Assembly (NCBI GenBank): GCA_965237675.1
Contig: OZ250150.1
Coordinates: 1,888,001-1,952,000, forward strand
Source: Candidatus Latescibacterota bacterium
GTDB lineage: Bacteria; Latescibacterota; UBA2968; GCA-2709665
Direction of reading: 5' to 3'
Length of the DNA: 64,000 nucleotides
Shown here piece by piece: positions 949-4,492 of this stretch. Made by a program: the position numbers and the translations under genes. The first letter of the stretch is position 1. Every line of letters starts with the position of its first letter. The notes below the pieces were generated by a model that saw only the letters and a program-made list of their open reading frames with translations, searched no databases and had not been told where the DNA came from.

Positions 949-1713
949 ATGTCACCGAAACCCCTTGCGGATCTCCTCGACCTGTCCGGGCAGGTCGCCA
1001 TCGTCACCGGCGCCAGCCGGGGCATCGGCAAAAGCATCGCCGAGGTCTTTCACCAGGCGGGCGCCAGCCTCACCCTGGTCGCGCGCAATGCCGGCCCGCT
1101 GAAAGCGGTCGCCGATACGCTTTCGGCCCGCGGGGACGTGCTCGCCGCTCCGGCCGACGTTGCGGACGAGTTGCAGATCGACGTCTTTGTTCAAAGGACC
1201 CTGAAGACGTTCGGCCGCGTCGACATACTGGTCAATAACGCGGGCCTGGTGAGCCCGGGTCCCTATACCGGCGTCGACCCGGGCGAGTGGCAGCGGGTGA
1301 TCGGCGTGAATCTCACGGGCGCGTATCTCTGCTGCCTGGCGGCGGCCCCCCACATGGAAAAACGGAAAAGCGGCCGAATCATCAACATTTCGTCCATCAG
1401 CGGCCAGACCGGCGGCGTCTCCGGCGGGGTCCACTACGCCAGTTCCAAGGCCGGTATGCTCGGCATGACCAAAACCCTTTCCCGCGATCTGGCCTCGAGC
1501 AACGTCACGGTCAACGCCATCACGCCGGGCGTCATCGAAACCAGCGTTGAGATCTCTCCGGAAAACCGTATCAGAATCAATGAACTTATACCCCTGGGTT
1601 ATATCGGGAAACCCGAGGAAATCGCCTATTCGGCCCTCTTCCTGGCCTCGCGGATGGGCGCGTATATCACCGGCGCCACGATCGACGTGAACGGCGGGAT
1701 TCTGAAGCGATAA
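949..1713 (+). CDS. Short-chain dehydrogenase/reductase (FabG-like)
   Basis: TGASRGIG, NNAG and YASSK motifs. Confidence 0.93.
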   Translation: MSPKPLADLLDLSGQVAIVTGASRGIGKSIAEVFHQAGASLTLVARNAGPLKAVADTLSARGDVLAAPADVADELQIDVFVQRTLKTFGRVDILVNNAGLVSPGPYTGVDPGEWQRVIGVNLTGAYLCCLAAAPHMEKRKSGRIINISSISGQTGGVSGGVHYASSKAGMLGMTKTLSRDLASSNVTVNAITPGVIETSVEISPENRIRINELIPLGYIGKPEEIAYSALFLASRMGAYITGATIDVNGGILKR

Positions 1714-1717
1714 AAGA

Positions 1718-1749
1718 AGCTATCAGCTATCAGCGGTTAGCTGTCAGCT
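1718..1749 (+). repeat. Heptad tandem repeat (AGCTATC-type)
   Basis: AGCTATC AGCTATC AGCGGTT AGCTGTC AGCT; related copies at 5652-5683, 9077-9093 and (reverse) 21088-21120. Confidence 0.85.
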
Positions 1750-1887
1750 AAAAACGAAAGGCAAAAGGCGGATTGCCATACGGACTGGCGATGCCAATGC
1801 ACGACGACCGCGGGCGGGGGGACCTCTCCCCCCGGCCCCGCGCCGAGCGGCGCCCGTCGCGAGAAACCCCTGAAATTGGAGATTGAT

Positions 1888-3078
1888 ATGACAACTCAAC
1901 AAGCGGAGTGGACGCCTGGTATCGAAACGTTCGACTCACTACTGTCGCGGATCAAGTCAAAACCCGAGGAGGTGCGGTGGACAGACATCGCCTGGGAAAC
2001 TGACCTCTGGAAAGCCCGACGGCGCGCGGCTGCCGTGCGCAGACCGCTGTTTATCTGGTCGATGAACGGCAACCCGCTCGGCTGCGTCTGAAACAACGGT
2101 ATCGCGGGCCGTGAGTCCGTCTTCTCCCATCCGGAGGTGATCCGGATCCTCAACGAATCTTTCGTATCCGTTGCGGACAATTGCAGTTATACCCAGACCC
2201 AGAAAGACGCCAAGGGCGAGTTCTTCCGCCTCGTGGCCGAACAGGGCCATTACGGAGGCCGCACCCAACCCACGGCAACCCGGCAGGGCCTGTACGCCTG
2301 CACGTCGGACGGCGAGTTGCTGGGGTCCATAAACACGCGGGATGCCGGCCCGTTCCTGGAGCTGCTTGAGCGGAGCCTGGTAAGGTGGCGAGAACGCCCG
2401 GACAACGGCGCAGCGGGTGAAATCCCTGAAACCTATCCCATCGATCCCAGACTCGGATGGTCCTATCCGGAAAACGGCCTGGCGCTCAAAGTCACGGTTC
2501 GGGACCTGCCGCGGAATTCCGAAGACCTCGACACACGGCACAACATCGACTTCGCGTGGTTTACCGAAGAGGAGGTCCGGTCTCTGGTGCCTGAGAATGC
2601 CCGGCCCGGCCAGACGCATCGCGCACCGGGCTGGTTTACCAGGCGTCTCGCCCTGCGCCACTTCATCGACACGGTTCGCGGGCAATCGCCCGGATGGCGG
2701 GAAGAAAACCTGAAAGAAGGCGAGATAAGCCTGACCGTCGAATCCACCGAATCCGACCGCATTCGTCTCCGCCTGGAGGGTCGCATCCACCTGGAAGCGG
2801 AACCCACGCTCGAGAGCAATCCCTTCAGCGGCCTGACCGTGGACAAGCCCCGGGGGCTGAAGCTGAGCCTGTTCGGCCACCTGACATACAATCCCGGGCG
2901 GCAGCACATAGAGGCCTTCGATGCGGTCGCCGCCGGGCCCCGCTGGGGCTGTACGACCTACAATGTCCGGTTCGACGACCCCGGCCCCGCGCCCATCGGT
3001 TTCGCCTTCGAACGCGGGTCGGGCGATCCCATCGAACGGACCCCTCCCGCTGCGATGGGGCCGAGGTACTTTGCTTAA
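1888..3078 (+). CDS. Putative selenoprotein with thioredoxin-like N-terminal domain (C-V-U), in-frame UGA at 2089-2091
   Basis: ORFs 1876..2091 and 2137..3078 share a frame and are separated only by TGA; read-through gives WETDLWKARRRAAAVRRPLFIW..GNPLGCV(U)NNGIAGRESVFSHPEVIRILNESFVSV, a continuous Trx-like pattern; GGAGA RBS before ATG 1888. Confidence 0.8.
2104..2120 (+). promoter_or_regulatory. Candidate bacterial SECIS hairpin
   Basis: GCGGGC-CGTGA-GTCCGT stem-loop starting 12 nt after the UGA, with G at loop position 2. Confidence 0.6.
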
Positions 3079-3142
3079 CGACTCTTTTTGAGATGCAGGA
3101 TAAGGATCGGATGGTCCCTGCGACCGGTAGTGCAGGGATATG

Positions 3143-3179
3143 CCAAAAGCGCCTCGGTGAAGAGCCGAGGCGCTTTTGG
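3143..3179. terminator. Bidirectional intrinsic terminator-like hairpin
   Basis: CCAAAAGCGCCTCGG-TGAAGAG-CCGAGGCGCTTTTGG perfect 15-bp stem downstream of the selenoprotein gene; degenerate copy at 3601-3639. Confidence 0.7.
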
Positions 3180-3263
3180 TGGCAACTATACTGCTTTATT
3201 CGCGAATCATTCATCTCAGCCTCCACAATGACTTGCCGAGGCGTTGAGGAAGTGGGTTTGAAG

Positions 3264-3387
3264 GTGGGGCAGACATTCCTGTCTGCCCTTCTAACGGTCC
3301 TTCCGCCGGGCTGCGGACAGAATAACCCATGTCGCACCGCAGCCGCGGACAATGGGGAGTAGGGGCAGGTTTCAAACCTGCCCCTAC
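3264..3387. repeat. Two REP-like palindromes
   Basis: GTGGGGCAGACATTCCTGTCTGCCC and GTAGGGGCAGGTTTCAAACCTGCCCCTAC (3359-3387), GTAG/GTGG-type REP hairpins. Confidence 0.75.
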
Positions 3388-3774
3388 GGTTGGAGTATCG
3401 GGACGCACCTCATGCTGGCATCGAGCCAGATTGTTCCGGCCTGCGAGGCAGCACAACGGTACCCACCTCAGGTGCGGTATCCATGGATAGGCGCGAGCTT
3501 CCAGGCCGCTCCCTGAAATTGTCGATGCGCTCGCGTTTCGCTGCACTTCGACAGTCTGGCCTCAATCGGATGGTCTCTGCGGCCAATATTGCGGCTATAT
3601 ACTAAAAGCGCCACGATGAAGAGCTGAGGCGCCTTTAGTATATATCGGTGCATTTCTTCTCGGACCGCAAGTCCAAGAATCATAGGGTCAATATATAGTC
3701 ATTGTGGATTTTTAAGTCTCGTGAAATTCTTGATTTTTGGAATATCGCCAGGTAAACTCGCAATCCCTCTGTGT

Positions 3775-3896
3775 GGGGGTACCCATCCATTGATGCCCCT
3801 TAAACGGTTGGCCCCCGCATTACGTGCATGTCTACCGTTTAGATGCGTCCATCTAAGGTCGACATGTCTTTGGATGGGTGACGTAACGCGGGGGCC
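3775..3896. ncRNA. Unassigned highly structured RNA-like element with possible pseudoknot
   Basis: Nested stems 3810-3825/3881-3896, 3826-3836/3857-3867 and 3839-3845/3850-3856; bulge TGGATGGGT (3871-3879) is complementary to ACCCATCCA (3781-3789). Confidence 0.45.
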
Positions 3897-4492
3897 TAGA
3901 TTTCTGTACTAACTCCAAGGTGATATTATATATACCCAACATTACTTTGCTGTCAAGTGTTTTTTGTCGGAACAACCCCATTCTCAAGAGGAAAAGCGGT
4001 AAGTCTCTTGATTTCAAAAGCATTCTCTGAAGTAGAATATGGCGAATTTCAACGCTGTCTCGAATCGCTTGCTCGACATCTTCCTTGGGATATTGATCGT
4101 AAACTTATACATCGACGGAACAGGACATGGTACGCCTCCCAACGATGTAAATTGCCGACTGGTTTTCGGGCAACGTAATTCAGCCTGGCCCTACGGTTGT
4201 CTACGGTCCCTCTATTCTGAACCTCGATTTCCCCGGGTCTGCCCTCAGCATGGGTGGCAGGTGACCGTTCAATCCCATCCGTCGAAGCACTTCACCGCAG
4301 ATTCGACTGTTCAGGGCGAAGCTGCCCAGGCCGAGGAGACTCGCCGGAGCTCCGCGGACGATCCGTCAAACTCGAGAAGGAAGTCACGATCCGAGAATTG
4401 GGTGAGACTGCGCGGAAGTTCAGTCATGACGCTCCGATCGGGGCCGTCGTCGCCTGGGGGCCGGCACGGCCTCCTCGATACGTTGTACACGG

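Follow-up and report, generated by a model that had tools for sequence, protein, structure and literature searches.

Thioredoxin-fold selenoproteins decoded by means of a bacterial selenocysteine insertion sequence (SECIS) are a known kind of protein. Eukaryotes have thioredoxin-like selenoproteins as well, namely Sep15 (SELENOF) and SelM, and Sep15 carries the motif CxU, where U is selenocysteine (Sec). The DNA considered here, referred to as the window, is a stretch of 64,000 nucleotides (nt) from Candidatus Latescibacterota bacterium (GenBank assembly GCA_965237675.1, contig OZ250150.1, positions 1,888,001 to 1,952,000 of the forward strand), and all coordinates below count from its first letter. 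At 1888-3078 it holds a gene that very probably encodes one selenoprotein of 396 residues, in which a thioredoxin-fold domain with the site C66-V-U68 is joined to a beta domain and Sec decoding is directed by a SECIS. The comparisons presented below make a real, conserved and recoded Sec codon a well supported reading of this locus.

Like Sep15 and SelM, the window protein would have Cys-x-Sec in the redox loop of a thioredoxin-like fold, and these proteins offer a precedent for a selenenylsulfide across one residue. They differ in being eukaryotic, small and resident in the endoplasmic reticulum, with the SECIS in the 3' untranslated region; a Pfam scan of the window protein, with a library understood to include a Sep15/SelM model, gave no match to it, and beyond the fold there is no sign of common descent. 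Among bacterial proteins, a May 2026 inventory gives 119 prokaryotic selenoprotein families or subfamilies in its Table 1, no entry of which has the thioredoxin-plus-beta architecture (PMC13188914). Nearest by name are Trx7/PDZ (NF041199) and Thioredoxin-like Sec.1 (PF13192). As far as they are described there, they are bacterial and of thioredoxin type, with one Sec in or near a Cys-containing motif, and they share with the window protein the kinds of evidence (conserved TGA, bacterial SECIS (bSECIS), Cys homologues). The window protein has another partner domain and another length, and membership in either was excluded because no NCBIfam or Pfam model matches it. By fold, the closest described domains are those of the DsbD-C/Thioredoxin_7/DsbH/DUF255 group (3f9u, 2ju5, 7tkv, 3ira; AGR2/AGR3, ERp19), which share the order of strands and helices and the helices before beta1. 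Relative to this group, the window protein has a longer loop after beta1 (MNGxPxGCxU), C-x-U in place of CxxC and an additional beta domain of 220 residues, with no match in Pfam (E <= 1) or among sequences of the Protein Data Bank (PDB). The parts of the locus are listed here with the basis of each in brackets (AF2, AlphaFold2).

1878..1881, forward strand: GGAG, Shine-Dalgarno-like, about 6-7 nt upstream of the ATG at 1888 (read from the sequence)
1888..2088, forward strand: coding part before Sec, residues 1-67, with N-terminal helices, beta1 and loop (translation)
Within 1888..2088, forward strand: beta1, LFIWSM, residues 54-59, followed by the loop MNGNPLGCV with Cys66 (model)
2005..2391, forward strand: thioredoxin-fold domain, residues ~40-168, across the TGA (AF2 model, Foldseek, VIA)
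2089..2091, forward strand: TGA, putative Sec codon for U68 (column conservation, Cys forms, Sec machinery)
2092..3075, forward strand: coding part after Sec, residues 69-396 (translation, homologue search)
2104..2120, forward strand: SECIS-like hairpin, intragenic (covariation, -7.6 kcal/mol, bSECIS rules)
2413..3075, forward strand: C-terminal beta-rich domain, residues 176-396 (AF2 model on 143 sequences)
3076..3078, forward strand: stop codon TAA (sequence, translation)
3143..3179, no strand: perfect 15-bp inverted repeat (3143-3157 with 3165-3179), 65 nt past the stop, a possible terminator (sequence)

Reading Frame and Conservation of the TGA

A single frame runs from the ATG at 1888 to the TAA at 3076-3078, with the TGA at 2089-2091 as its sole interruption, which bears out the observation of the initial annotation that two same-frame open reading frames (ORFs) are parted here by nothing other than a TGA. 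Read through, 1888-3078 gives 396 residues with U at position 68, flanked by the peptides ...WTDIAWETDLWKARRRAAAVRRPLFIWSMNGNPLGCV-U-NNGIAGRESVFSHPEVIRILNESFVSV... or, with a longer stretch before Sec, ...RPLFIWSMNGNPLGCV-U-NNGIAGRESVFSHPEVIRILNESFVSV... The ORF list splits the locus into 1876..2091 (71 aa) and 2137..3078 (313 aa, GTG start), and the database homologues P0002 and P0003, of 313 aa each, indicate that gene callers cut there. The bare split-ORF pattern is within chance expectation, as the six frames of the window (G+C 57.8%) hold 30 same-frame ORF pairs split by one TGA. The split at 2089-2091 rises above chance because the TGA is shared at the same column by all homologous loci examined and the protein is conserved on both sides, the part before Sec from about residue 13 onward in all site-spanning matches. 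Within the window TGA terminates 17 of 35 long non-overlapping ORFs; it is therefore an ordinary stop in this organism, with no genome-wide reassignment.

The read-through protein retrieved 154 homologues at E <= 0.001. Among the matches listed, query cover was at most 82% for every one of 120 homologues, and many begin with MAGR... or VAGR..., a few residues past the TGA. When 168 genomes of the same phylum were searched in six frames, matches were found in 44, and all 47 matches that span residue 68 have exactly one TGA, the remaining four rows being partial matches that end short of the site. The fetched phylum loci have the TGA at the same column in 30/30, within the motif KP[LM]F[IL]WAMNG[NH]P[LIV]GC[VT]-TGA-NNG. 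A second scan, with one genome per species and seeded with alignment A1, gave 460 relatives, and the best 80 of these have TGA at the site in 80/80; their labels include Latescibacterota, Gemmatimonadota, Poribacteria, Chloroflexota, Planctomycetota, Armatimonadota, Bacillota and others. The two sets of loci share genomes and combine to 85 distinct 60-nt site sequences. C-[VT]-U is found in all 110 loci, and the motif common to them, WAMNG[NH]PxGC[VT]-TGA-NNG, extends to about 35% identity. In A1, N69, N70, G71 and R75 are invariant, and all of them precede the first possible start, GTG 2137. Codons for Trp or Arg and the stops TAA and TAG, any of which would have told against the proposal, were not seen at this position in these relatives, and the 396-residue CxU selenoprotein that had been proposed is supported by this conservation.

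A nonsense mutation of recent date or an error in sequencing could also have produced the TGA, which would make the locus a pseudogene or an artefact of assembly. Nothing except the stop itself speaks for this. The explanation is extremely improbable, because all loci examined, to about 35% identity, share the column of the TGA, and because contigs of related strains from three RNA-library runs read across the site and show no difference at 2089-2091 in the rows listed. The runs are metatranscriptomes from two studies, and the contigs are 88-95% like the window and span 1926-2329, 1878-2206 and 1849-3061; run X20 covers the gene in parts only. Within 2001-2220, 15 differences are listed for these contigs, of which 12 affect third codon positions of the read-through frame, both before and after the TGA.

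Predicted Fold

The full-length AF2 model, built on a 17-sequence alignment (mean predicted local distance difference test (pLDDT) 73.8), shows a thioredoxin fold that spans the TGA. Three helices precede the fold; beta1 (54-59) lies before the TGA, followed by the C66-V-U68 loop, and alpha1 (73-91) lies after it, with beta2, alpha2, beta3, beta4 and alpha3 continuing to residue 168. The loci examined have C-x-U and no CxxC, and the proposal that C-V-[UGA] sits at the usual CxxC site holds in the model, in which C66-V-U68 occupies the beta1-alpha1 loop with approximate geometry at 67-70. The best solved match in Foldseek is 3f9u, a DsbD-like C-terminal domain (E 3.7e-4, TMt 0.63), with further matches to 7tkv (Thioredox_DsbH), UAS domains, AGR2/3 and ERp19. 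VIA, for which Z 8 was taken as the trust level, aligned residues ~26-175 with 3f9u_B (Z 13.1, root-mean-square deviation 2.4, 110 aligned), followed by 3ph9 (AGR3, 11.7), 2lst (11.6), 3ira (10.7), 7tkv (9.9) and 2ju5 (DsbH, 9.8). Sequence searches returned no family: the full protein had 0 Pfam families at E <= 1, Thioredoxin_7 and Thioredox_DsbH included, and 0 matches at E <= 1 in NCBIfam release 20.0; 143 members, represented by the residues past the Sec column only, had 0 consistent Pfam families and three single-member chance matches; and a profile search of PDB sequences gave one chance row (E 0.35). The earlier assignment to a Thioredoxin_7/DUF255-like fold thus stands in terms of structure, the best solved matches being those of the Thioredoxin_7/DsbD-C/DsbH/DUF255 group, and does not stand in terms of a Pfam sequence match.

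The C-terminal residues 176-396, folded alone by AF2 with 143 sequences, gave a pLDDT of 95.8 and a predicted template modeling score of 0.90, and in the model seven strands, long and antiparallel, are accompanied by two short helices over ~220 residues, with many conserved charged residues that include R205/D206, N219, D221, R253, D261 and R361. Foldseek found nothing for this domain in the PDB at E <= 0.001, and the best VIA value was Z 6.7, with none >= 8. The Z 6.7 matches are outer-membrane and soluble up-and-down barrels; at this value no fold was assigned. The ESM Atlas look-alikes of homologue P0004 are only unnamed 'hypothetical protein' clusters. With these results and the empty Pfam scans, the large C-terminal domain is as uncharacterised as the initial annotation had stated.

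Uninterrupted Homologues

From the protein and profile searches, 265 homologues were re-scored with the A1 profile. In 205 the alignment starts within 12 residues of the homologue's own N-terminus, just past the Sec column; 33 begin later, 11 are of other kinds and 16 are uninterrupted across the column. The register at the site was read from the conserved GHPLG motif. Cys occupies the Sec column in seven of these 16 (two C-V-C, three C-T-C, one S-T-C and one Q-A-C), which are Cys counterparts of the kind that had been sought; in the other nine the column reads A, A, R, G, S, S, N, D, D. Two of the Cys forms have no Cys66 and position 68 therefore looks the essential residue. A tree was built quickly from 79 Sec, 7 Cys and 9 other rows, 95 in total, after removal of duplicates and of loci rows with X or with fewer than 290 residues past the site. 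Both C-V-C proteins nest there in a starred clade of 21 rows, of which 19 are Sec forms, the window's among them. The Cys label requires at least four changes on starred branches; the tree is unrooted and many of its non-Sec rows are on long branches.

These classes also bear on the possibility that the TGA is a true stop and that the locus encodes a conserved protein of 67 residues and another of 313-328 residues, made separately, which perhaps assemble. Gene callers do read it as two genes, as seen in the 205 of 265 homologues that start just past the TGA (standard annotation splits the gene as had been predicted), and in the window GTG 2137 opens the ORF of 313 aa. However, a division at this point cuts the predicted thioredoxin fold between beta1 and alpha1, and conservation at the protein level extends through the 15 codons from the TGA to GTG 2137, where N69, N70, G71 and R75 are invariant. 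Moreover, the relatives share no fixed position past the TGA for a start codon, the called proteins begin at differing columns, 16 homologues are uninterrupted and a covarying hairpin is found at SECIS distance. A single gene is preferred because the frame is continuous, the thioredoxin fold spans the TGA, the four residues are invariant and codon-position-3 differences are found on both sides, and a pair of separate genes is highly improbable.

A SECIS-Like Hairpin

Twelve nt past the TGA begins a hairpin with a stem of 2104-2109 paired with 2115-2120 and a loop, CGUGA, at 2110-2114, which places the loop 18 nt from the UGA. Hairpins of this type (type A) are found in 69 sequences as a stem of seven pairs (alignment columns 21-27 with 33-39; six pairs in the window) and a 5-nt loop that reads CGUGN in 64/69 and CGGGC in 5/69. 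In type A, 88.4% of cells are paired, compared to 30-52% with the 3' partner slid by 1-3 columns. Changes on both sides are seen in 7/7 pairs, and the 70 double-changed cells compare with 23.7 +/- 3.6 after shuffling (0/500 shuffles as high). A second type (type B), found in 16 Planctomycetota-type sequences, has an 8-pair stem 4 nt further 3' with a GGUCN loop (AGUCU in 2), 86.7% of cells paired and energies that are all <= -10.1 kcal/mol; we take its GGUC-type loop to resemble the E. coli fdhF element. The window hairpin can be set against the bSECIS rules given in PMC13188914 (Fig. 2 legend), as follows.

Apical loop: 3-9 nt by rule, 5 nt in the window
Upper stem: 4-16 bp by rule, 6 bp in the window
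Loop sequence: by rule a G in either of the first two positions, mostly followed by G or U; in the window a G at position 2, then U
Distance from UGA to loop: 16-37 nt by rule, 18 nt in the window
Energy: <= -7.5 kcal/mol by rule, -7.6 kcal/mol in the window

As far as that source states the constraints, hairpins of both types satisfy them, the energy limit being reached by 59/69 of type A and 16/16 of type B. In comparison with the bacterial SECIS consensus (the bSECISearch model as described in PMC13188914), the window shares an intragenic hairpin just 3' of the UGA, the 5-nt loop with G at its second position and then U, the 18-nt spacing and an energy <= -7.5 kcal/mol. It differs in the short stem of the family (6-7 bp), in that no bulged U is seen and in the absence of an Rfam SECIS match.

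Selenocysteine Machinery and Weight of the Evidence

The genome (5.61 Mb, three contigs) was checked for selA, selB, selC and selD, as had been suggested along with the selenoprotein reading, and all four were found above curated cut-offs: selD with 363 bits, selB with 358, selA with 561 and tRNA-Sec (selC) with 73. The genes selA, selB and selC are mutually adjacent. The selD gene lies outside the window (G000:C1:309559-310482) and has one in-frame TGA inside its 363-bit TIGR00476 match; the selenophosphate synthetase of this genome is therefore itself a selenoprotein.

Insertion of a standard amino acid (Trp, Cys, Gly or Arg) at a recoded or read-through UGA would account for the uninterrupted frame without Sec. 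In its favor, G or R is the residue at this position in some of the homologues that lack the interruption, and all support for selenium in the protein is so far comparative. Set against this, TGA ends 17 of the 35 long ORFs and no genome-wide reassignment is indicated, the genome has a complete Sec system, the hairpin satisfies the bacterial SECIS rules and Cys, the sulfur analogue of Sec, is the commonest replacement (7/16). Decoding as a standard amino acid is therefore very improbable.

Besides the comparative nature of the support for selenium, several observations weigh against a selenoprotein with a SECIS at this locus. The codon in the second scan was taken from the best 80 of 460 relatives, and the seed motifs of that scan flank the site. 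The argument from Sec and Cys rests on just seven sequences, next to nine with non-redox residues. In the model, pLDDT is <50 at residues 67-70, and the placement of U68 relative to alpha1 is therefore approximate. With respect to the hairpin, that of the window barely passes the energy rule (-7.6 vs. -7.5) and 10/69 of type A fail it, while in the 16 type-B sequences the stem is conserved yet without covariation. An Rfam scan of 1700-3400 at E <= 10 gave no SECIS family and only sub-threshold chance rows. The 91-nt stretch 2080-2170 folds no better than shuffles (z -0.76; 45/200 as good), and the case for the hairpin rests on covariation because the minimum free energy of this stretch is indistinct from that of shuffled sequences. 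The gene selA is present in 42 of the 44 gene-positive phylum genomes, which is consistent with Sec decoding in a weak sense; this co-occurrence is uninformative because selA is present in 131/168 phylum genomes anyway. Two gene-positive genomes (80% and 81% complete) are without selA; in one of these the selenoprotein gene is itself present only as a fragment. Transcription of the gene is only hinted at by the contigs from RNA libraries, because DNA can occur in such libraries. Two further points concern the substrate: the beta domain, as described above, lacks a solved relative at the levels applied, and no conserved neighbourhood was found, with neighbour clusters in at most 11/80 loci.

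Proposed Mechanism and Function

On this reading, the UGA at 2089-2091 would be decoded as Sec by the SelA, SelB, tRNA-Sec and SelD of the genome, with the hairpin at 2104-2120 (loop CGUGA, 12 nt downstream) acting as the bacterial SECIS that directs decoding. The thioredoxin domain, of DsbD-C/Thioredoxin_7/DsbH type, would present C66-V-U68 in the beta1-alpha1 loop at the place of CxxC. Residue U68 may then be the nucleophile that attacks an electrophile, such as a disulfide or a sulfenate/peroxide-type oxidant. Cys66 would resolve U68 by way of a selenenylsulfide that a cellular thiol system then reduces, and the beta domain would hold the substrate and set specificity. Provided that the protein is a selenoprotein, this redox mechanism, with U68 as nucleophile, Cys66 as resolving residue and a substrate-holding beta domain, is moderately probable, and we read the family as an undescribed, Sec-dominated group of oxidoreductases.

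The whole two-domain module is also found at the C-terminus of Ser/Thr protein kinases, namely the non-TGA homologues P0126, P0155, P0170 and P0172, whose site residues are T-G-D, C-V-A, C-T-C and C-S-S. In the two linkers that were read, those of P0155 and P0170, a hydrophobic segment lies between kinase and module. Other combinations are seen in P0126, which has Kelch repeats as well, in P0134, where the module is joined to a PQQ-like beta-propeller, and in P0212, where it is joined to an EF-hand. The module persists in proteins without a redox residue and therefore a binding role for the beta domain is indicated, a role to which these sequences point.

The kinase fusions raise an alternative for the chemistry of a real selenoprotein, namely that C-x-U does not act on thiols and disulfides and instead binds or transforms a metal or metalloid (e.g., Hg, As, Cu or Se), or that the module is mainly a ligand sensor. 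Several CxU or CU selenoproteins catalogued in a table of PMC13188914 are metal-related, the module often stands without redox residues at the C-terminus of these kinases, which fits ligand binding, and the beta domain has many conserved charged residues. However, the fold and the U68 site are those of redox-active thioredoxin-fold proteins, no metal-binding family matches in Pfam or NCBIfam, and no conserved metal-resistance genes are found nearby in the 80 loci or the window. A metal-related or sensory function in place of thiol-disulfide exchange is rather unlikely. A more far-reaching reading, which is less likely than not, is that this is a new selenoenzyme family in which Sec is near-obligatory. 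The ligand of the beta domain would be specific and probably polar, either a small molecule or a segment of a protein, and the module would be reused as an extracellular sensor of Ser/Thr kinases with or without redox residues. The chemistry of U68 would be poorly done by Cys, and Cys forms would therefore be rare.

As for location, no hydrophobic N-terminus is found in the window protein or in the Chloroflexota and Poribacteria forms, and the Planctomycetota-type Sec forms start with a signal-peptide-like segment, as judged from hydropathy and reading, with no predictor. The window protein would accordingly be placed by its sequence in the cytoplasm, and the Planctomycetota-type relatives would act outside it.

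Gene Surroundings

The gene is isolated, with an SDR gene upstream at 949-1713. The ~1.4 kb downstream (3080-4490) is without a long ORF, and beyond 4490 are found genes for an aldo-keto reductase, Ldh_2, a metallo-beta-lactamase-fold protein and Gfo/Idh/MocA. Across the 80 loci, the largest neighbour clusters reflect synteny between close relatives. Ldh_2 (PF02615; 5886-6947 in the window) lies 0.3-2.8 kb downstream of the selenoprotein gene, on either strand, in the window and in 10/80 loci (L069, L073, L075 and seven close relatives), which include one Poribacteria-labelled and two Chloroflexota-labelled genomes; its proximity is a weak lead to function.

A scan for terminators and promoters gave no promoter, and the hairpin at 3143-3179 was unlisted because only 4 T follow its stem. 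That hairpin (3143-3157 with 3165-3179) is one of several perfect hairpins in the region 3080-4490: a similar one is found near 3597-3640, and two others, at 3266-3289 and 3361-3386, have the form GGGGCAG...CTGCCCC. The intergenic segments 1739-1839 and 3237-3292 reach summed depths of up to 312 and 325 in run X21, compared to 12 over the gene, and many of the contigs there continue into unlike sequence, a pattern suggestive of either a repeat found at many places or a small RNA of high abundance; the core at 3268-3287 has a single occurrence in the window. On the minus strand at 1707-1786, upstream of the gene, a sub-threshold match to a fluoride riboswitch (18 bits, gathering cut-off 34, E 0.053) is probably due to chance.

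A Widespread Family and Its Significance

The profile search of 1.84 billion cluster representatives returned 2,966 proteins at E <= 0.001, and the labels of family members range over Latescibacterota, Poribacteria, Chloroflexota, Planctomycetota, Armatimonadota and others. As far as was checked, the family appears to be large, widespread and unnamed in Pfam, NCBIfam and the 119-family inventory. NCBIfam is understood to serve the NCBI annotation pipeline in naming selenoproteins. A full-text literature search gave no description of the family, and the available portions of the GOS study (PMC2398784), the deep-Sep study (PMC12013277) and BSepDB (PMC13326102) name no fitting family; members may still be present in the supplementary data of these studies. 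The site motifs are absent from the searched part of the BSepDB supplement, which is mostly a species table and says little on this point.

The family was probably missed through its Sec forms far outnumbering its Cys forms, the reverse of most selenoprotein families. Methods based on Sec/Cys pairs would therefore miss it, and a limit for families without Cys homologues is stated by the authors of one such tool in the part of their paper that was available (PMC12013277). Owing to the split at the TGA, the database entries of almost all members are truncated 'hypothetical proteins', without the first strand or the active site. Once the family has a name, thousands of gene models would be put right and the selenoproteome counts of poorly studied phyla would rise, and the beta domain, which folds well in prediction and has no clear solved relative, is a target for structural and functional work.

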